DNA of 64,000 bases, taken from contig CAVRPP010000003.1 of assembly GCA_963723165.1 (NCBI GenBank), positions 413,717 to 477,716 on the forward strand. Direction: 5' to 3'. The notes under the pieces were generated by a model. It saw nothing but the letters and a program-made list of their open reading frames with translations. It did not search any database and was not told where the DNA came from. Position numbers and translations under genes: made by a program. The stretch's first letter is position 1. Each line of letters opens with the position of its first letter. This document shows positions 5,292 through 56,689 of this stretch, in pieces. The DNA is from an uncultured Actinomycetota bacterium (GTDB lineage Bacteria > Actinomycetota > Acidimicrobiia > Spongiisociales > UBA4744).

Positions 5292-5317
5292 CAGTTGCAG
5301 TTGCAGTTGCAGTTGCA
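5292..5317. repeat. (CAGTTG)4 hexamer microsatellite inside a low-GC intergenic region, overlapping a TGCAACTGCA palindrome
   Basis: CAGTTGCAGTTGCAGTTGCAGTTGCA, followed by GATTCTGCAACTCTGAAAGTGCAG. Lies in the gap between Tad modules II and III. Confidence 0.8.
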
Positions 5318-12792: not shown

Positions 12793-13962
12793 GTGCGCCG
12801 TTTGCTCCTCCCTATCTCGTTGATTTCGGCCTTATCGCTGACGGCGTGCGGCCTGCTGCCGGCTGCAACTACCGACAACGGCTCCGTCCAGACGCCCTCA
12901 TCAACCACCCTCGGCATAGATCTGAACATGGACGACCCGGAGTTGCTTCAACGCCTCGGATCCCCGCCTTTCGAAGACGTCACCTGGACGAGAACCATCG
13001 GCGGCATACCCCTGCTGGGAGCTACCGGTTCGGCAGACCAGCGTGAGCTCGAGCTGATCGCTGCGGCTTTTGAGGAAGTTCCAGCAGCCCTGTCGGCAGA
13101 GGGGCAGCCCCGAAACCTCATCCGTATCCAATCGGTCGGCGGTGAGGAAGCCATCGGCAAAGCAGTCGCATTTACCAAGGGACCCGACATCTACCTCGTC
13201 GACCGGACCTTCGCTCCCAACGATGAAGACACCACTCGCCTCGAATTGACCAGGGCTCTCATCCACGAACTCGCCCACGTCGCCCAGTACCGGGCTCTCG
13301 AGGCCACCTACGTCGAGGCGGCACTGGCCGGCGAGGTCGAGCAGGTCGATCCGGCCGCGGGTTCGAGCCTTGTGCAGTCGTTTGCGGCATCGGTCGGTTG
13401 GATCGATCAGAACCCCGACCCCTTGGAGGCCTCGTGGTTTCTCCCCACCACGATCGAGGCCTCAACTGATTACGGGCGGACCGGAGCCGGCGAGGACATG
13501 GCCGAGGCCGTCTCCATGGTCGTGCTTGGACGCTCGAATTGGATTCCTGCCGCGCATACACGATGGGTGGAGCAGTGGCTGGGAAGAGCGTCTGCATCGC
13601 TGGCGAGCGGCAAGCCGTGGGCGCCGGCCGGATCCCGTGAGGTCCTCTCCAAGGATCCGCTCTACGACGAGACCTCACTCACCGCCGGCGCCTTCCGGTT
13701 CGAACACATCGAACCGCTCTACTTCAGCCTCCCGGCAGAAACCAGTCCTCACGCTGGTCTGGCCGCCGAGATTCAGGTCCGGCTGCTGGAGCGCCGTATC
13801 AGTGGCGTGCTTGCCCTCACCGATGACGACCGGTTGCCCCACTACGCCGGTATGTTCACCAGGAAGGACGGGGTGAACCTATGGGTGGAGCTGTGGGACT
13901 TCCGGGAAGCCACGGGATTCAGAACCGCCGATCCGATCCTGACCTACGTCATGCTGTGGTAG
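12793..13962 (+). CDS. Lipoprotein of unknown function with an HExxH motif (possible secreted zinc metallopeptidase-like protein)
   Basis: Signal peptide with lipobox LSLTAC. HELAHVAQY motif. No family was recognised with confidence. Confidence 0.5.
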   Translation: MRRLLLPISLISALSLTACGLLPAATTDNGSVQTPSSTTLGIDLNMDDPELLQRLGSPPFEDVTWTRTIGGIPLLGATGSADQRELELIAAAFEEVPAALSAEGQPRNLIRIQSVGGEEAIGKAVAFTKGPDIYLVDRTFAPNDEDTTRLELTRALIHELAHVAQYRALEATYVEAALAGEVEQVDPAAGSSLVQSFAASVGWIDQNPDPLEASWFLPTTIEASTDYGRTGAGEDMAEAVSMVVLGRSNWIPAAHTRWVEQWLGRASASLASGKPWAPAGSREVLSKDPLYDETSLTAGAFRFEHIEPLYFSLPAETSPHAGLAAEIQVRLLERRISGVLALTDDDRLPHYAGMFTRKDGVNLWVELWDFREATGFRTADPILTYVMLW

Positions 13963-14010
13963 CAGTCAGCAGTCAGCCCATTCTCGTGATAGCTGATAGC
14001 TGATAGCTGG
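13962..14010. repeat. Heptamer tandem repeats (CAGTCAG x2; GATAGCT x3) between convergent genes
   Basis: GCAGTCAGCAGTCAGC ... GATAGCTGATAGCTGATAGCTGG. Confidence 0.7.
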
Positions 14011-14011
14011 A

Positions 14012-14762
14012 CTAACTTCCCACGATCCATGTCCCGGCGACGACGCGATCGAACGCTCCGGCCCCGCTCATTTCGAGGCGGCGGATCCCGGGCAGGGGCC
14101 CTGCCTCCAGGCTGATCCGACCACCCGGCCAAAGCAGCTCAGCCGAATCGGCATCGTGGGCGGCGACTTCGGCGCCCAGTACTTCGACGAAGAACCCAGC
14201 CGTCAGTCCGACGTCGTCAGACACCATCACCACCCGTTCCAGCACCGCCGAGAACGGCTCCCCGGGGCGGCGGCTCGGGCCACCAGCGTCGGCCGGCCGG
14301 CTCACCGGCCCGGGCTGCATCCCAGGCCAGCTCGAACCGCCAGACTTCTGACTCGGCCAGCTGAATCACCGTTCCGTGAGAATCCCGCGGGTGGAGGAAC
14401 GCTTCCCGCCAGTTCGCATCGGACAGGTCGACCCCAACCGGATGCAGCCCGATTTCCTCTAGCCGCTTCAACTCGGCGGCCAGGTCGGGCACCTTGAAGG
14501 TCAGGTGGTGGGGTCCATCTCCGTGACGATCGAGGAACCTGACCAGGAAATCGCTTCGATCGAGGTTCCATGGTTCCAGCAGCTCGACAGTCATGCCCGT
14601 GGTCAGGTCACCGAGCCTGATCTGCATAGCCCGGAACCCGGCCGCGTCGCCGCCGGAGACCAGAGTGGCTCCGAGTTCAGAAATCAGCCGGTCGCGGGGC
14701 GGCACGGCATCCCGAACGGCCAGGGCGACGTGATCGAGATCGCAGCGCCGGTTCGGCTTCAC
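14012..14762 (-). CDS. Two-domain VOC (glyoxalase/bleomycin-resistance/dioxygenase) family protein; the frame changes near 14320, so either a frameshift or two overlapping genes
   Basis: ORF 14217-14762 carries a VOC-like domain (DLDHVALAVRD...HHLTFKVPDLAAELKRLEEIGL). ORF 14012-14320, in another frame, continues a second VOC-like domain. Confidence 0.45.
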
Positions 14763-43486: not shown

Positions 43487-43514
43487 AAACTGGAAACTGG
43501 AAACTGTGAACTAC
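43487..43514. repeat. Heptamer tandem repeat (AAACTGG x2-3, ACTG core) in the guaB3 / CPBP divergent region
   Basis: AAACTGGAAACTGGAAACTGTGAACTAC. Confidence 0.7.
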
Positions 43515-43582
43515 TCTTCTTTCCCGTGAACTTACCGCCCCTATCCGCCCCGCCCTCGTTTCGCTGGAGATTCAGCGACTTC

Positions 43583-45562: not shown

Positions 45563-46945
45563 TCAGGTTGCAGCGGCGGAATTGCCGCCGCCAGGGAATA
45601 GCGTCTTTCGTGAGTCCCAGAAAACAGCACCCAGGATGATGAGCCCACCGACGCCGATGATCCATTTCAGGTACTGATCCTCGAAAGCTTCGCCGCAAGA
45701 AGCGCACTCCCTATTGACGGGAATGGCGCCGATTCTCCCGTTGGCCACAGGCGCAGTGAGATTGGAGTCAACGATGGAGGTCGACGTCGTTTCTGCGGGT
45801 ATGAGTGCCATGTCTGTAGGGGTGTGATCCGTCCCATGACAGCTCGTGCAATCAACCCGACCGAGATGAGGACTATGACAAACAACACACTCCGCATCAA
45901 CAGCCGTAGGGGTGTGATCCGTCCCATGACAGCTCGTGCAATCAACCCGACCGAGATGAGGACTATGACAAACAACACACTCCGCATCAACAGCCGTAGG
46001 GGTGTGATCCGTCCCATGACAGCTCGTGCAATCAACCCGACCGAGATGAGGACTATGACAAACAACACACTCCGCATCAACAGCCGTAGGGGTGTGATCC
46101 GTCCCATGACAGCTCGTGCAATCAACCCGACCGAGATGAGGACTATGGCAAGCAACACACTCCGCATCAACAGCCGTAGGGGTGTGATCCGTCCCATGAC
46201 AGCTCGTGCAATCAACCCGACCGAGATGAGGACTATGACAAACAACACACTCCGCATCAACAGCCGTAGGGGTGTGATCCGTCCCATGACAGCTCGTGCA
46301 ATCAACCCGACCGAGATGAGGACTATGACAAACAACACACTCCGCATCAACAGCCGTAGGGGTGTGATCCGTCCCATGACAGCTCGTGCAATCAACCCGA
46401 CCGTTGTGAGAGATGTGGCAAGCAACACACTCCGCATCAACAGCCGTAGGGGTGTGATCCGTCCCATGACAGCTCGTGCAATCAACCCGACCGTTGTGAG
46501 AGATGTGGCAAGCAACACACTCCGCATCAACAGCCGTAGGGGTGTGATCCGTCCCATGACAGCTCGTGCAATCAACCCGACCGTTGTGAGAGATGTGGCA
46601 AGCAACACACTCCGCATCAACAGCCGTAGGGGTGTGATCCGTCCCATGACAGCTCGTGCAATCAACCCGACCGTTGTGAGAGATGTGGCAAGCAACACAC
46701 TCCGCATCAACAGCCGTAGGGGTGTGATCCGTCTCATGACAGCTCGTGCAATCAGCCCGACCGTTGTGAGAGGTGTGGCAAGCGACACACGCGAAATCAG
46801 CAGGTCCGGGATCCTGGCGAGGACCTCTACTCAGTTGGACGGCCAAGTCACCGCCCGGTATGTCGGCGAGTACCGTCGGCTGGCCAAAAAGTAAGAAGCC
46901 AAGGCCAGCCAGCAGGATGGAGCCGATGGTGAGGCGCTTGTTCAC
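45563..46945 (-). CDS. Membrane-anchored tandem-repeat Cys/His-rich protein with 22 CxxCH motifs (candidate giant multihaem c-type cytochrome, or a novel metal-binding repeat protein)
   Basis: N-terminal signal peptide MNKRLTIGSILLAGLGFLLFGQPTVLA. Eleven 30-aa repeats (DAECV[AV]CH[IS][SP]H[NL]GRVDCTSCHGTDHTPTAV), each with 2 CxxCH. C-terminal TM helix KWIIGVGGLIILGAVFW. This is the only frame with start, signal peptide and TM anchor. Other long ORFs on both strands are periodicity artefacts. Confidence 0.6.
   Translation of the reverse strand: MNKRLTIGSILLAGLGFLLFGQPTVLADIPGGDLAVQLSRGPRQDPGPADFACVACHTSHNGRADCTSCHETDHTPTAVDAECVACHISHNGRVDCTSCHGTDHTPTAVDAECVACHISHNGRVDCTSCHGTDHTPTAVDAECVACHISHNGRVDCTSCHGTDHTPTAVDAECVACHISHNGRVDCTSCHGTDHTPTAVDAECVVCHSPHLGRVDCTSCHGTDHTPTAVDAECVVCHSPHLGRVDCTSCHGTDHTPTAVDAECVACHSPHLGRVDCTSCHGTDHTPTAVDAECVVCHSPHLGRVDCTSCHGTDHTPTAVDAECVVCHSPHLGRVDCTSCHGTDHTPTAVDAECVVCHSPHLGRVDCTSCHGTDHTPTDMALIPAETTSTSIVDSNLTAPVANGRIGAIPVNRECASCGEAFEDQYLKWIIGVGGLIILGAVFWDSRKTLFPGGGNSAAAT
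45815..46810. repeat. Eleven near-identical 90-nt in-frame tandem repeats inside the CxxCH gene, falling into two subfamilies
   Basis: Units start at 45821, 45911, ... 46721. Units toward the gene's 3' end (45821-46360) carry CCGAGATGAGGACTATGACAAACAAC (CVVCHSPHLGRV). Units toward its 5' end (46361-46810) carry CCGTTGTGAGAGATGTGGCAAGCAAC (CVACHISHNGRV). Only a few substitutions separate units. Confidence 0.9.
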
Positions 46946-52302: not shown

Positions 52303-52917
52303 ATGGATGACCTCTCGACCGACCCACGATTCTCACGCCGGTTCATGTTGCGACCGTTCAAACGTCGCGACGCCGACGATATGACCGAGGCCGTGCAGGC
52401 ATCCCAACTCGAACTCAACGAGTGGCTGCCGTGGGCTCATCTCGGCTACACGAAGGGAGATGCCACCACCTACATCCGCGACAGCATCAAGTCCTGGCGG
52501 GAAGAACGCGCCTACGACCTGGCGATCAGGAAGACCGATGAACCGGGTCGTCACATCGGCAACATCTCAGTGTGGTTCGTCTCCCGATCATTCAAAACCG
52601 GCGAGGTCGGGTACTGGGTGCGTACGGACGAAACCTCTCGAGGAGTCGCTACCGAAGTGACGGCCCGGGCGCTGCAGATGGCATTCGAAGAACTCAAGAT
52701 GCACCGGGTGATTCTTCGGATCGCCACCGGGAACCGCGCCAGCGAACGGGTCGCAGAGAAGCTCGGGTTCTTCCGGGAGGGGATTCTGCGCGAGGAGATC
52801 AAGGTTCGTGGCAAATGGCTCGACCACTCGGTCTGGGGTCTGCTCGAACATGAGTACAAGAAGAACCGGGGCAGGTACCAGGACCTCATCGGGGCAACAG
52901 ATCAAGCCGTCGAATAG
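52303..52917 (+). CDS. GNAT family N-acetyltransferase (RimJ/RimL-like)
   Basis: FMLRPFKRRDADDMTEAV...IGNISVWFVSRSFKTGEVGYWV...ILRIATGNRASERVAEKLGF. Confidence 0.8.
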   Translation: MDDLSTDPRFSRRFMLRPFKRRDADDMTEAVQASQLELNEWLPWAHLGYTKGDATTYIRDSIKSWREERAYDLAIRKTDEPGRHIGNISVWFVSRSFKTGEVGYWVRTDETSRGVATEVTARALQMAFEELKMHRVILRIATGNRASERVAEKLGFFREGILREEIKVRGKWLDHSVWGLLEHEYKKNRGRYQDLIGATDQAVE

Positions 52918-52932
52918 TGAAGACGTTATTCG

Positions 52933-53178
52933 TTATTCTTCATTCGTTGCTCGTGCCTCGTGGTTTCGCTTCCAGCGGCTGATGGCCGACCAGCGGGACA
53001 AGACGGAGCCGGGGATGACGCCCAACAGGTGGACCGGGAGAAAGTACTCGAGCGGTGGGTTGCCACCCGAAAACTTGACCACCAACCACACAACCCACAC
53101 CAGAAGACCCAGCAGGATCAGCCGGCGACCGATCCGCTCGAGGTTTGAAGCGTCGGCTCTCTTGATGGTGGCGGTCAC
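52933..53178 (-). CDS. Hypothetical small membrane protein
   Basis: An 81-aa ORF with a TM segment LILLGLLVWVVWLVVKF. Weak call. Confidence 0.35.
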   Translation of the reverse strand: MTATIKRADASNLERIGRRLILLGLLVWVVWLVVKFSGGNPPLEYFLPVHLLGVIPGSVLSRWSAISRWKRNHEARATNEE

Positions 53179-53324: not shown

Positions 53325-54972
<1,648 letters not shown>

Positions 54973-55263
54973 TTAGGCGATGATCGCGAGCAGGTCGCGA
55001 GAAGAGAGGATCAGATACTCCTGGCCCTCGAACTTGATCTCGGTGCCCCCGTACTTGGAGTAGACGACCGTGTCGCCTTCCTTGACGTCCATCGGGGTGC
55101 GTTCTCCCTGGTCGTTGACCTCTCCGGGCCCAACGGCCAACACCTCACCCAACTGTGGCTTCTCTTTGGCCGTATCGGGTATTACCAGACCAGACGCGGT
55201 GCGAGCATCTTGATCATCCTTGGCCTTGACGACCACACGATCGCCCAATGGCTTCAATTTCAT
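54973..55263 (-). CDS. groS: Co-chaperonin GroES
   Basis: [47 protein letters not shown]. Confidence 0.9.
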
Positions 55264-55287: not shown

Positions 55288-55344
55288 TTAGCACTCCATG
55301 GCTCTGAGTGCCAGATTCTAGCACTCACCCATACAGAGTGCTAA
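55288..55344. promoter_or_regulatory. Two tandem CIRCE (HrcA) operators upstream of groES
   Basis: TTAGCACTC-N9-GAGTGCCAG (55288-55314) and CTAGCACTC-N9-GAGTGCTAA (55318-55344). The consensus is TTAGCACTC-N9-GAGTGCTAA. Confidence 0.75.
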
Positions 55345-55408
55345 CCGGGGTTTCGCGGGCTTGAAGTAGCCGGTAGCCAATAGCCAGTGAACGCAAACCA
55401 TCTTCGCG

Positions 55409-55469
55409 AACTGGGAACTGGGAACCGGGACCCGGGAACTGGAGACTGACAACTGACGACTGGAACTAC
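55409..55469. repeat. Array of about eight 7-nt units with an ACTG core (ACTGGGA ACTGGGA ACCGGGA CCCGGGA ACTGGAG ACTGACA ACTGACG ACTGGAA)
   Basis: Periodic 7-mer array between corA's 3' end and the groES promoter. The ending (...CTACGTCTTCTTTC) resembles that of the 43487 array (...CTACTCTTCTTTCC). Confidence 0.75.
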
Positions 55470-56551
55470 GTCTTCTTTCGGTCCGGGTCTTCGACCAACC
55501 ACTGCAGGACTCCCCGCACCGGGGTGGTAGTGACGTGGAAGAGGCCGGCCAGGCCCCGACCAACGACCCGATCGACTCTCGGCAGACGCGGGCCACCGAT
55601 GAACCCCCGCCTGGAGAAGTACACCCACAGCCCGACCGAGAAAACGACCATGACACCGAGCAAGGCGAAATATGCCCACGGCTGGTCGAGTTCCGGCATG
55701 TTCACGAAGTTCATACCGTAGATTCCGGCGAGCAGGGACAGCGGCAGAATGATTGCCGAGAATACGGTCAGGACCTTCATAACCTCGTTGGTACGTTCCG
55801 CCACGGAGCTCCGGTAGGTCTCGAGCACAGAGGCGAGCAGGGCGCGAGCCATGTCGAGCGACTCAACGACCCGAAAACAATCGTCGTAGACGCTGTCGAG
55901 TCGCCGCCGGGCCCGGTCGTCGATGCCCGGCATCCCTTCATGCATCAAGGCACGCACCATGTCACGCTCGGGCGCCAGTACCCGTCGCAAGACGATGGCG
56001 TCACGTCGAAAGGCCTGCACCATCCCGACGACGTGGGGATCTCCTGCAACCGAACGTGACTCGAGGTCGGATATCTGAGCTTCGAGACCATCGACCAGTT
56101 GCAACGACCGCCTGGCGGCCGCTTCGAGAATGCCCGCCAGCAAGGTGTCCGGGCTGAGCGAGGAGAGGGTGTCCGCTTGCCGGAGCCGTTCGTGAGTCCA
56201 GGCAACGCCCGGGATGGGCGTTCGGTGGAAGGTGATGAGATACCGTTCGGATACGAACCCGTCCAGCTCTGCGGTGCTCACCCGATCATCGACCAGCGCC
56301 GGGCTGTGCGATGAAAAGAACACGTGATCGTCGTAGTCGTCGGCCTTGGGGAATTCGCTGACGTTTTGCACGTCTTCCAGGCCTTCCCCCTCCAGTCCAA
56401 AAAGCCGTCCGATTTCCTCGACGACTTCACGATCGACCGAGTCAACATCGAGCCAGAACCAGTCCTCCCCGCCGACCTCATTGCCGAGATCGTGCAGAGC
56501 CGGTTCTGAGAAGCGGTGCCGACCGTTGCTCACGGTCATCAAATGCATCAT
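55466..56551 (-). CDS. corA: CorA family magnesium/cobalt transporter
   Basis: Two C-terminal TM helices with the YGMNF signature (GIYGMNFVNMPEL). Confidence 0.85.
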   Translation of the reverse strand: MMHLMTVSNGRHRFSEPALHDLGNEVGGEDWFWLDVDSVDREVVEEIGRLFGLEGEGLEDVQNVSEFPKADDYDDHVFFSSHSPALVDDRVSTAELDGFVSERYLITFHRTPIPGVAWTHERLRQADTLSSLSPDTLLAGILEAAARRSLQLVDGLEAQISDLESRSVAGDPHVVGMVQAFRRDAIVLRRVLAPERDMVRALMHEGMPGIDDRARRRLDSVYDDCFRVVESLDMARALLASVLETYRSSVAERTNEVMKVLTVFSAIILPLSLLAGIYGMNFVNMPELDQPWAYFALLGVMVVFSVGLWVYFSRRGFIGGPRLPRVDRVVGRGLAGLFHVTTTPVRGVLQWLVEDPDRKKT

Positions 56552-56596
56552 GCGGACCCGATTATCGGGTCAGAGGCGGTCAAGACCGGGGATTTC

Positions 56597-56629
56597 GCAA
56601 CCAGCAACCAGAGACAAGAGACCAGAGAC
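56597..56629. repeat. Heptamer periodic array (GCAACCA GCAACCA GAGACAA GAGACCA GAGAC) flanked by an inverted repeat AGACCGG...CCGGTCT
   Basis: Between the corA 5' end and the DUF1295 gene 3' end. Confidence 0.65.
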
Positions 56630-56689
56630 TTTGACCGGTCTGGATGGATTTGACCAGCGAAGCAGTCTGGAAGCTGGTGGCTGCGGCCG

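Follow-up and report, generated by a model that had tools for sequence, protein, structure and literature searches.

Heptanucleotide tandem arrays and their inverted pairing in intergenic DNA of an uncultured Acidimicrobiia lineage

Catalogues of heptanucleotide repeats go back to 1990, and the cyanobacterial repeat STRR1 is reportedly built of CCCCAGT units. According to the survey of Mrazek (2007), as it is cited in two later papers (PMC4679880, PMC4692102), no long simple-sequence repeats are as over-represented in bacteria as heptamers, and polymerase slippage has been proposed as their cause. The hupS spacer of Nostoc 7120 contains TTGTCAG x3 and CACTGACTACTGAC, with (C/T)ACTGAC units (PMC2408588). 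Inverted pairs of GGGAATC-type repeats are able to form stem-loops or cruciforms (PMC4692102). A post-transcriptional regulator of the RNA-binding type has been proposed to act on the TAACTGA repeats of Beggiatoaceae (PMC4679880) and on Nostoc heptamers.

An initial annotation of the DNA considered here saw no obvious actinobacterial precedent for its repeats. For the class as such this was too strong: heptanucleotide repeats have been described, and of the ten genomes in which repeats with units of 5-11 nt are most abundant, three are from Actinobacteria, as the 2007 survey is cited in PMC4679880. In the literature searched, such repeats were known from cyanobacteria and Xanthomonas and were not found reported from the Acidimicrobiia lineage.

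Period-7 arrays in the window and its relatives

The window, meaning the whole stretch of 64,000 nt that was analysed, comes from an uncultured Acidimicrobiia lineage represented by metagenome-assembled genomes. Tandem arrays were located by TRF and diagonal scans. The seven intergenic sites of the initial annotation are all present at the coordinates given there, and one further period-7 array, at 52924, was absent from its list. Outside the corA-groES spacer, which is treated in the next section, the arrays are as follows (related loci are given as L numbers).

5292..5317, plus strand: (CAGTTG) x4.3 between two tad-pilus genes, the sole period-6 member, with a single inverted unit, TGCAACT, 9 nt downstream
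13961..13977, plus strand: (AGCAGTC) x2.4, 5' arm of a predicted hairpin between convergent genes, starting within the TAG stop codon of a 389-aa gene
13987..14009, plus strand: (TGATAGC) x3.3, 3' arm pairing with 13961-13977, with its end 2 nt away from 14012-14014, where the convergent ORF on the minus strand has its stop codon
19762..19778, plus strand: (CTGACGA) x2.4 between divergent genes and upstream of both, 18 nt before the start of the minus-strand gene and 53 nt before the MFS gene; different arrays occupy the orthologous site in L094, L095 and L096
21304..21319, plus strand: (GTACAAA) x2.3 in the spacer where the MFS and DUF2207 genes converge, with a GC-rich hairpin after it
43487..43514, plus strand: (AAACTGG) x2.9 at 43487-43506 and a degenerate unit in the divergent guaB3/CPBP-protease spacer, with the GTG start of CPBP 12 nt further downstream
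52924..52945, plus strand: (CGTTATT) x3.1, beginning 6 nt beyond the end of a plus-strand gene at 52917
56597..56629, minus strand: array upstream of corA, reading GTCTCTG GTCTCTT GTCTCTG GTTGCTG GTTGC in the sense direction (GCAACCA/GAGACCA units on the plus strand), forming the 3' arm of the predicted hairpin between DUF1295 and corA
56654..56684, minus strand: predicted 5' arm partner of the 56597 array, GCAGCCACCAGCTTCCAGACTGCTTCGCTGG, made of degenerate NNNCCAG units in the sense direction

How far do these arrays depart from expectation? The 5.4 kb of intergenic DNA in the window hold six period-7 arrays where 0.04 are expected (diagonal scan, score >= 9), a 150-fold excess, and no excess over expectation is found there at periods 4, 5 or 8-11. 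Across the whole window, exact 7-nt tandem duplications number 12, against 4.4 +/- 2.3 in dinucleotide shuffles. Exact 14-nt duplications within genes amount to four, which equals the chance expectation. The arrays are restricted to intergenic DNA: in a set of five related loci with independent gene calls (84.7 kb, 91% coding and 9% non-coding) all nine arrays are intergenic, and by crude gene calls at least 51 of 67 are. According to a rough count, about 21 of 25 independent array-holding spacers include a gene 3' end, convergent pairs among them. Most arrays of the lineage have 2-8 units, with a maximum of 16.

The excess is also specific to the lineage. Period-7 arrays occur at 14 per 100 kb in the window, 15 in close relatives and 12 in more distant Acidimicrobiia (12-17 in relatives overall), and at 1.1 and 1.2 per 100 kb in control DNA from Myxococcota and from assorted contigs, respectively, which is a tenfold contrast. 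Likewise, (CAGT-N3) x3 clusters were found 11 times in 547 kb of lineage DNA and once in 587 kb of other DNA, and in the same comparison no CAGT clusters occur at periods 5, 8 or 9. Head-to-tail 7-nt units, an excess at period 7, confinement to non-coding DNA and copy numbers that change by whole units are the features that define heptanucleotide simple-sequence repeats, and all of them are found here.

The units themselves are diverse, with at least 48 distinct types lineage-wide. ACTG or CAGT is present in 12 of 48 distinct types, where composition-matched shuffles give 3.5 +/- 1.8, and an ACTG core is present in five of the ten window arrays. The shared ACTG core suggested initially is therefore a genuine bias but not a universal core; the vocabulary is skewed to CAGT/ACTG, CCAG/CTGG and TCAG/CTGA, and there is no single motif. 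It is usually CAGT, not ACTG, that lies on the sense strand after the stop codon in arrays of the lineage.

Inverted array pairs behind stop codons

Many arrays form inverted pairs around a short loop, and long imperfect hairpins are predicted for them immediately after stop codons. The tract flagged at the outset is the 5' arm of such an inverted-array element, which has the corA stop codon on one side and the groES promoter on the other. Read along the minus strand, the element and its surroundings consist of the following features.

55466..55468, minus strand: corA stop codon TAG (CTA on the plus strand), end of ORF 55466..56551 (Pfam CorA, E=3e-64)
about 55409..55465, minus strand: 5' arm of the corA-groES element, with its tandem units at 55408-55462, identified from sequence, by TRF at period 7 and by a diagonal scan score of 18
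55389..55408, minus strand: unique loop or core between the arms, CGCGAAGATGGTTTGCGTTC, the apical stem-loop of the predicted fold
55366..55388, minus strand: 3' arm of degenerate inverted heptamers, ACTGGCT ATTGGCT ACCGGCT AC, based on the predicted fold and the L094 alignment
55288..55344, minus strand: two CIRCE inverted repeats and the groES promoter TTAGCA-18-TAGAAT, from sequence and promoter scan; context only, outside the repeat family

The 5' arm begins immediately 3' of the corA stop codon and reads, on the minus (sense) strand, TTCCAGT CGTCAGT TGTCAGT CTCCAGT TCCCGGG TCCCGGT TCCCAGT TCCCAGT. These are eight head-to-tail heptamers, as first described for 55409-55469, but ACTG, then given for all of them, is present in six and replaced by ACCG or CCCG in two. 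The 3' arm, whose counterpart in L094 is (ACTGGCT)n, pairs in the predicted fold with the last three units of the 5' arm. At unit 3, CCGGU faces ACCGG, so that both sides are changed relative to CCAGU/ACUGG, and the middle 3'-arm unit (AUUGG) contributes one G-U wobble. Only three of eight units are paired, and the hairpin predicted at this site shows no significant gain in stability over shuffles (z about -1.3). The CIRCE boxes and the groES promoter lie downstream of the element and are conserved in L001-L017. A scan for a canonical intrinsic terminator, that is, a GC-rich stem-loop with a T-run, found none after corA, and the array hairpins have no T-run; termination by tail-less hairpins is compatible with this result.

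Two arrays had been described as ending in a similar tail, 'CTAC' and 'GTCTTCTTTC'. The likeness is real (16 of 17 bases, with one base missing), but both copies lie outside the arrays. At corA, the tail is the end of the coding sequence (...RKKT*), its copy at 55470-55479 being the last corA codons, which are conserved in corA orthologues. The copy at 43515-43525 is a conserved leader directly 5' of the CPBP protease GTG start, and relatives keep this leader regardless of which array follows. The tail is thus ruled out as part of a mobile element.

Other pairs in the window differ in the strength of the predicted fold. The hairpin in the DUF1295-corA spacer, whose 5' arm is conserved in L001-L021, has a sense-strand z of -2.7 for the bare spacer and -2.2 with 70-nt flanks. 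The arms at 13961 and 13987 pair at six of seven positions per unit, one G-U included; folded alone, the 66-nt spacer gives z = -3.4 (minus strand), and with 70-nt flanks z is not significant. Their orthologues in L093, L094 and L105 have other units in the same hairpin layout. The arrays at 43487 and 19762 have no inverted partner in their spacers, and those at 5292, 19762, 21304, 43487 and 52924 show no significant fold on either strand.

Among related loci, inverted pairs are formed by (CGTACTT)n with (TACGAAG)n in L011, by (GGTTTCA)n with (CCTGAAA)n in L095, and by (NNNCCAG)n with (GCTGGTT)n in L002/L021. An inverted pair in L094 reaches -81 kcal/mol, compared with -58 in shuffles (z = -4.75). 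Fold z is below -2 in 40% of 47 array clusters, and about 60% have no significant fold; the reference here is shuffles and not array-free spacers, so that the arrays are not demonstrably more structured than ordinary spacers. The complementary arms could be kept by template-switch repair of quasi-palindromes and not by selection at the RNA level. Self-pairing of single arrays through 4-nt palindromes within units was rejected, such palindromes occurring in 15 of 48 units where 20 are expected. A known RNA family was also ruled out, as Rfam 15 at gathering score gave no match in the whole window.

Turnover of the arrays and how they may have arisen

When the same spacer is compared between relatives, are the arrays conserved? 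Arrays occupy fixed sites between conserved sequence, and their units are replaced, in the corA-groES, DUF1295-corA, eCIS/glyoxalase, MFS/DUF2207 and guaB3/CPBP spacers. In the guaB3/CPBP spacer, every relative has a different heptamer array at the same position. Unit sequences are replaced wholesale between close relatives, and the adjacent promoter and CIRCE boxes are conserved. Copy number at orthologous sites ranges from 2 to 16. Thus, (GTACAAA) x2.3 of the window corresponds to (GTACCAA) x6.6 to x8.3 in L093, L096 and L099, and AGCAGTC x2.4 to 16 units in the orthologous array of L094. The orthologous (GCTGGTT) array between DUF1295 and corA has x3 to x6 in L002, L005, L012 and L021 and about two copies in the mixed array of the window. 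Between L002 and L021 the only difference is one GCTGGTT unit, about 160 further aligned bases being identical. The comparison of unit counts, proposed earlier and run here between related loci, therefore shows differences of whole units, which supports the earlier suggestion of tracts mutable by slipped-strand events.

These observations are probably best explained by heptanucleotide simple-sequence repeats that are driven by slippage, fill the non-coding DNA of the lineage and have in part been built into 3' stem-loops. Tandem 7-nt arrays would form and then change at their sites as whole units are added or lost, replication slippage being the most likely mechanism. Only outside genes would indels of non-triplet length be tolerated, so that arrays would accumulate in intergenic DNA. 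A large subset consists of two arrays of complementary units, inverted with a short loop between them, and therefore the transcript, or single-stranded DNA, could fold into a long imperfect hairpin. Such predicted hairpins start at or within a few bases of the stop codon, and may serve as 3' stem-loops, either terminators or stabilisers of transcript ends, and so insulate one transcription unit from the next. Arrays that lie unpaired in divergent promoter spacers may be near-neutral filler. The CAGT bias is not accounted for by slippage alone.

The corA-groES element points to a further step. It matches an L094 element at a different, non-orthologous locus at 51 of 57 bases, including a near-identical unique core of 18-20 nt, and this match is better than that to its own orthologues in L011 and L004. 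Slippage alone cannot explain the shared core, and an extra copying step is needed.

Does this make the repeats REP-like, as had been suggested? They would then be non-autonomous array-core-array hairpins, and a RAYT-type transposase (IS200/IS605-like) would copy them between intergenic sites, as is the case in Enterobacteria and Pseudomonas. The hairpin form outside genes, the position just behind stop codons, the cross-locus copy in L094 and the GTAG at the start of several elements all fit this idea. However, REP/REPIN families consist of one imperfect palindrome in many copies, and among the sampled loci no palindrome is conserved across sites, and unit types number at least 48. A high-copy conserved core is ruled out for these loci, as their 547 kb of lineage DNA contain just two copies of the unique core. 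Relatives that lack the array show degenerate heptamer remnants and not clean empty sites with target duplications, and the GTAG, which in REP elements is conserved at the foot of the hairpin, coincides here with the TAG stop codon of the genes, a codon that those relatives have as well. REP families are accompanied by a RAYT gene, which the repeats often flank; none was seen among the sampled loci, and a small ORF flanked by inverted arrays in L101 encodes a secreted 113-aa protein and not a RAYT-like transposase. The REP-like reading has limited support, from the form and position of the hairpins and from the single cross-locus copy, and is unlikely as an account of the family.

Equally unlikely is the proposal that the arrays offer multiple binding sites to a lineage-specific protein that binds nucleic acids and could act as a transcription factor, as a nucleoid protein or, through RNA, as a regulator at the post-transcriptional level. 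The bias towards ACTG/CAGT is significant, and some arrays lie 12-18 nt upstream of starts that have no obvious Shine-Dalgarno sequence (43487 before the CPBP GTG, and 19762), a start-proximal position that resembles the Beggiatoaceae pattern (PMC4679880). Deletion of heptamers also changed reporter output in Nostoc/E. coli constructs (bioRxiv 10.1101/2022.06.06.494920). Yet a site for one transcription factor should be conserved at orthologous promoters, and this is not what is seen: units are not conserved at orthologous sites, several unrelated unit types may occur within one spacer, and the array is absent from close relatives (L002, L003, L005 and others) with identical groES promoter and CIRCE boxes. 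The notion of iterated sites for one regulator is contradicted by this wholesale replacement beside conserved promoter sequence and by the number of unit types. The spacing also differs from known iterated operator layouts. Head-to-tail sites 7 nt apart succeed each other at about 240 degrees on B-DNA, and SARP heptamers, an iterated operator layout, have 11-nt spacing. Two related candidates were set aside, namely a CsrA-type sponge RNA with GGA motifs, because units are not conserved and Actinobacteria are generally not known to have CsrA, and Rho rut sites, because the sense strand of many arrays is not rich in C and poor in G.

It is very improbable that the arrays are phase-variable contingency loci, at which gain or loss of units would switch a neighbouring gene on or off. 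A change of a single unit between near-identical sequences, and the presence of some arrays in promoter-containing spacers, are what such loci would show, but most of the array-holding spacers counted above contain a gene 3' end, and the neighbours are housekeeping genes (corA, groES, guaB3, MFS, tad) and not surface-antigen genes. Contingency repeats lie in a reading frame or between -35 and -10, and the flagged array lies outside these positions, about 20-120 nt upstream of the groES -35 hexamer. Finally, unrelated chance duplications in a GC-rich genome would fit the several window arrays with only 2.3-2.4 copies and the four 14-nt duplications inside genes, but coincidence is already refuted by the intergenic excess at period 7 only, the contrast with other taxa and the longer arrays of relatives at the same orthologous positions.

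Comparison with described repeat families

The lineage provides an independent, high-GC, actinobacterial case of heptanucleotide repeats. Many related metagenome-assembled genomes are available, so that orthologous spacers can be compared, and the arrays are organised as complementary hairpin arms abutting stop codons, with a vocabulary that overlaps those of cyanobacteria and Beggiatoaceae. These three properties make two questions testable: whether slippage and neutral drift or selection for structure shapes the arrays, and whether arrays mark transcript ends. The tracts are also hotspots for assembly breaks and for strain-level length polymorphism, and thus possible strain markers in uncultured Acidimicrobiia.

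It is tempting to speculate that inverted heptamer arrays are a class of self-renewing stem-loop elements that recurs across phyla with the same CAGT/ACTG-centred vocabulary, a proposal that is itself rather doubtful. The phyla concerned would be Cyanobacteria, Beggiatoaceae, Bacteroidetes and Acidimicrobiia, with TTGTCAG, TACTGAC, NCCCAGT and NAACTGA as shared units. If this were true, it would suggest that one conserved molecular mechanism produces the repeats and also maintains the complementarity of their arms; this could lie in how the replisome or primase behaves at CTG/CAG, or in a nucleic-acid-binding protein of wide distribution. The elements might then also be copied between loci, at which the core shared by the window and L094 elements hints.

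Among described systems, the long simple-sequence repeats with 5-11 nt units (LSSR; Mrazek, Guo and Shah 2007) are alike in that heptamers are the most abundant, lineages are affected sporadically and non-triplet units lie outside genes. As represented in PMC4679880 and PMC4692102, LSSR are a statistical class that carries no structural claim, whereas here a large subset consists of complementary inverted arrays. REP/REPIN elements with RAYT share with the present repeats imperfect hairpins outside genes, after stop codons and between convergent genes, and the one cross-locus copy; in contrast to them, the lineage has no conserved high-copy palindrome, and its stems are made of tandem heptamers.

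The Xanthomonas GGGAATC and Nostoc GGGGA(T/C)T repeats (Rehm et al. 2015, PMC4692102) are, like those of the lineage, strongly over-represented specifically in intergenic regions. Between the same genes in related species, the Xanthomonas repeats vary in length and sequence, and some form inverted pairs (PMC4692102). Their units, as those of Nostoc, contain G-tracts with G-quadruplex potential, whereas the units of the lineage lack G-tracts except for a few in distant relatives, such as L112.

The TAACTGA repeats of Beggiatoaceae, which are also found in some Cyanobacteria and Bacteroidetes (MacGregor 2015, PMC4679880), are intergenic, ACTG-containing, head-to-tail 7-nt units in 2-6 copies per set; L094 carries the units AACTGAC, AACTGAA and AACTGGN. 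Strains differ by indels in 7-nt steps, and the repeats can be absent from relatives in which the gene neighbourhood is unchanged (PMC4679880). The Beggiatoaceae have one dominant unit, and most sets are oriented forward directly upstream of start codons (PMC4679880), whereas the lineage has dozens of unit types and most of its arrays lie near gene 3' ends.

The cyanobacterial STRR of Calothrix and Nostoc/Anabaena also have head-to-tail 7-nt units at many dispersed intergenic sites and are hypervariable between strains. Their units overlap in part with those of the lineage, which has TTGTCAG, TACTGAC and TCCCAGT, and units of the Nostoc hupS spacer recur in L011, the window and L095. In the lineage, arrays remain short by comparison and inverted-pair hairpins behind stop codons are prominent. 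The host here belongs to the high-GC Acidimicrobiia (Actinomycetota), and with only partial overlap of units the arrays do not belong to the cyanobacterial STRR in the strict sense, for which a cyanobacterial host and the named units STRR1-3 are required. On the best reading, the repeats of this lineage are of the same kind as cyanobacterial STRR, Beggiatoaceae TAACTGA and Xanthomonas GGGAATC repeats, in a new lineage.

Period-7 arrays and their distribution

The initial annotation had noted 6-7-nt tandem arrays in spacers of the window, and at period 7 they are confirmed beyond chance. The window contains 12 exact 7-nt tandem duplications, against 4.4 ± 2.3 in dinucleotide shuffles, and its intergenic DNA (about 5.4 kb) holds six period-7 arrays where 0.04 are expected. 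No excess is found there at periods 4, 5 or 8-11, and period 6 is represented by a single array, CAGTTG. On five related loci (84.7 kb, 91% coding, independent gene calls) all nine arrays are intergenic. About 21 of 25 independent spacers include one or more gene 3' ends and roughly half are convergent, which, given crude gene calls, is only suggestive.

Among species-representative genomes, relatives of the window MFS protein are uncultured Acidimicrobiia MAGs (84-97% and 56-65% identity), with Myxococcota next at 45-48%; GuaB3 relatives are likewise named Acidimicrobiia. The excess is specific to this lineage, to period 7 and to intergenic DNA.

Density of period-7 arrays (number in 100 kb)
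Window: 14
Close relatives: 15
More distant Acidimicrobiia: 12
corA-linked close relatives: 17
Myxococcota: 1.1
Assorted contigs with distant corA homologues: 1.2

Clusters of three successive CAGT cores spaced 7 nt apart number 11 in 547 kb from the lineage and one in 587 kb of other DNA; the same scan found none at spacings 5, 8 and 9. In an unrelated metagenome contig (L037, 3963-4005), the CAGT-type array (AGTTAGC) x6 follows a few bases after the alignment with a distant corA homologue (28% identity) ends, so such arrays also occur outside the lineage.

Do the units share one core? The proposed ACTG core survives as an enrichment: with arrays collapsed to 48 distinct unit types, 12 contain ACTG/CAGT, against 3.5 ± 1.8 in composition-matched shuffles. 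CCAG/CTGG, CTGA/TCAG and GGAA/TTCC show comparable enrichment, and ACTG is missing from units such as GTACCAA, GCTGATA, ACCTGAA and GGTGACA. The vocabulary is thus biased, approximately towards GGAAC(T/C)(G/T)G in its various rotations, and not built on a single core.

The corA-groES element and inverted arrays

The tract at 55409-55469 is placed between two minus-strand genes:

55466..56551, minus strand, corA (Pfam CorA, E = 3e-64)
54973..55263, minus strand, groES

Directly 3' of the corA stop codon TAG, the sense strand has eight head-to-tail heptamers, TTCCAGT CGTCAGT TGTCAGT CTCCAGT TCCCGGG TCCCGGT TCCCAGT TCCCAGT, followed by a 20-nt unique segment, CGCGAAGATGGTTTGCGTTC, and three degenerate heptamers of opposite sense (ACTGGCT ATTGGCT ACCGGCT). 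Some 20 nt beyond these, the groES promoter, TTAGCA-18-TAGAAT, sits within two CIRCE inverted repeats. In the predicted fold, which is not significant against shuffles (z about -1.3), pairing is limited to the three loop-proximal units; one unit pair is altered on both sides (CCGGU with ACCGG). The heptamers of this spacer differ among the window, L011, L004, L007, L001 and L012, while L002-type relatives have a short spacer with only degenerate 7-nt remnants and the same promoter and CIRCE boxes.

The CIRCE (HrcA-type) repeats at 55288-55344, TTAGCACTC-N9-GAGTGCCAG and CTAGCACTC-N9-GAGTGCTAA, overlap the promoter upstream of groES in all relatives examined. Just upstream of the corA start (56552-56600, minus strand), an invariant hairpin, GACCCGATAATCGGGT, is preceded by the invariant AAATCCCCG; both are conserved in seven of seven aligned relatives, beside a variable array, and form a candidate 5'-leader regulatory element. 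groEL (53325-54951) appears as two overlapping minus-strand ORFs of 395 and 165 aa where relatives have a single 541-aa GroEL, probably through a frameshift or assembly error in the source MAG. The glyoxalase-like gene (14012-14762) is likewise spread over two frames, as minus-strand ORFs 14012..14320 and 14217..14762 that overlap; this is possibly another assembly frameshift.

The inverted layout is frequent, many arrays consisting of two runs of complementary units around a short loop. At the comparison locus L094, TAG-(AGTCAGC)3(AGCCAGT)13, a loop and (AACTGGN)8-CTA span the entire gap between two convergent stop codons, with a predicted fold of -81 kcal/mol versus -58 for shuffles (z = -4.75). 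The same spacer in the window, which follows the 389-aa gene, has (CAGCAGU)n paired with (GCUGAUA)n at six of seven positions, including one G-U (z = -3.4 for the bare 66 nt, minus strand); L105 and L093 have still other unit pairs there in the same hairpin layout. In the DUF1295-corA spacer, (NNNCCAG)n pairs with (GCTGGTT)n in most relatives and (CGTACTT)n with (TACGAAG)n in L011; in L095, (GGTTTCA)n pairs with (CCTGAAA)n. Folding of 47 non-redundant array clusters, with flanks of 70 nt, gave z < -2 for 40% and z < -3 for 26%. The window arrays starting at 5292, 19762, 21304, 43487 and 52924 have no convincing pairing partner.

Paired arrays may act as 3' stem-loops, serving as terminators or transcript-end stabilisers; at the corA-groES site such a structure would part corA from the heat-shock-regulated groES promoter, and unpaired arrays would be near-neutral filler. 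Alternatively, template-switch repair of quasi-palindromes could keep the arms complementary without selection on RNA. In the DUF1295-corA spacer, which separates tandem genes, the sense-strand z is lower in six of seven orthologues, which are not independent of each other; this bias weakly supports an RNA-level role.

Two further layouts were observed. L112, from a more distant Acidimicrobiia MAG, has a convergent spacer (430-660) in which four heptamer arrays are interspersed with two copies of an approximately 75-nt element bearing a GC-rich hairpin (CCTCCCCCGC...GCGGGGGAGG). In L101 (5190-5865), inverted arrays (TGTCACC) x5 and (GGTGACA) x4 lie about 600 nt apart; the ORF between them encodes 113 aa with a signal peptide and is not a transposase.

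Turnover of units at fixed spacers

In relatives, arrays occupy the same spacers with other copy numbers and other units. The DUF1295-corA spacer holds three GCTGGTT copies in L005 and L008, four in L012, five in L002 and L003 and six in L021, and the mixed array of the window retains about two; one 7-nt unit is the sole difference between L002 and L021 across an alignment of about 160 bases. In the MFS/DUF2207 spacer, GTACAAA x2.3 of the window corresponds to GTACCAA x6.6-8.3 in L093, L096 and L099, and AGCAGTC x2.4 after the 389-aa gene to 16 units (113 nt) in L094. In the divergent guaB3/CPBP spacer, each relative carries another array (GTTTCCA, CTCAGTA, GTACTTT or GGTGACT) between two conserved edges.

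Indels are thus unit-wise and units turn over at fixed positions, as expected of slippage-prone simple-sequence repeats, which supports slipped-strand tracts, one of three initial suggestions; replication slippage would both generate and resize the arrays. A second suggestion, a REP-like element, is weak. Array sites are mostly not homologous copies of each other; the one clear exception is the window corA-groES element. An L094 element at another locus agrees with it at 51 of 57 bases, including the unique core TTCGCGAA(G/A)ATGGT(T/A)TGC, and resembles it more closely than do the orthologues in L011 and L004. Only two copies of the core are present in 547 kb. We interpret the match as a single ectopic event, copying or conversion, between spacers that carry arrays, and not as evidence for a high-copy mobile family. 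The third, iterated sites for one regulator, is not supported, since units are replaced within the same spacers, unlike conserved binding sites.

A similar tail, CTACGTCTTCTTTC, had also been noted at two arrays. The likeness is real (16 of 17 bases, 55463-79 versus 43508-23), but it is explained otherwise, by a constraint acting on each copy separately: CTACGTCTTCTTTC complements the final codons and stop codon of corA (...RKKT*) and is conserved in corA orthologues, and the copy at 43508-23 is the CPBP leader.

Larger repeats were also seen. L097 (12138-12238) contains (AACCTGA)n and then CCGTTGCGCCGC three times over, in blocks of some 35-41 nt, indicating that heptamer arrays have themselves been duplicated as larger units. 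Within a 460-aa minus-strand ORF of the window (45563..46945), a 90-bp unit is repeated 10.5 times at 98% identity (45816-46763). The ORF product has a signal-peptide-like N-terminus and two CxxCH motifs (CVACH, CTSCH) per 30-residue repeat, about 22 putative haem-c sites in total. In L126-L130 the corresponding interval from trpS to the leuA-like gene consists solely of a ~300-nt spacer, suggesting recent insertion or expansion of the gene.

Heptamer repeats in other bacteria

Slippage has been proposed to explain why heptameric repeats are over-represented in general (Mrazek 2007, as cited in PMC4679880 and PMC4692102), and three Actinobacteria are among the genomes richest in repeats of 5-11 nt units (Mrazek 2007, as summarised in PMC4679880). 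Calothrix PCC 7601 was reported to carry three tandemly repeated heptanucleotides, and intergenic regions of Xanthomonas and Nostoc show strong over-representation of heptameric repeats, which recur between the same genes across related species, vary extensively and in some cases form inverted pairs (PMC4692102). TAACTGA repeats of Beggiatoaceae, Cyanobacteria and Bacteroidetes show indels in 7-nt steps between strains (PMC4679880). In Nostoc constructs, deletion of heptamer repeats changed reporter output, with no binding partner known (bioRxiv 10.1101/2022.06.06.494920).

The literature searched contained no description of heptamer arrays in Acidimicrobiia, and the present arrays extend a known kind of repeat to a new lineage. 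They add a useful twist in the hairpins of complementary arrays abutting stop codons and in a unit vocabulary common to distant phyla: the Nostoc 7120 hupS spacer contains TTGTCAG x3 and CACTGACTACTGAC (PMC2408588), units also found here in L011, the window and L095.
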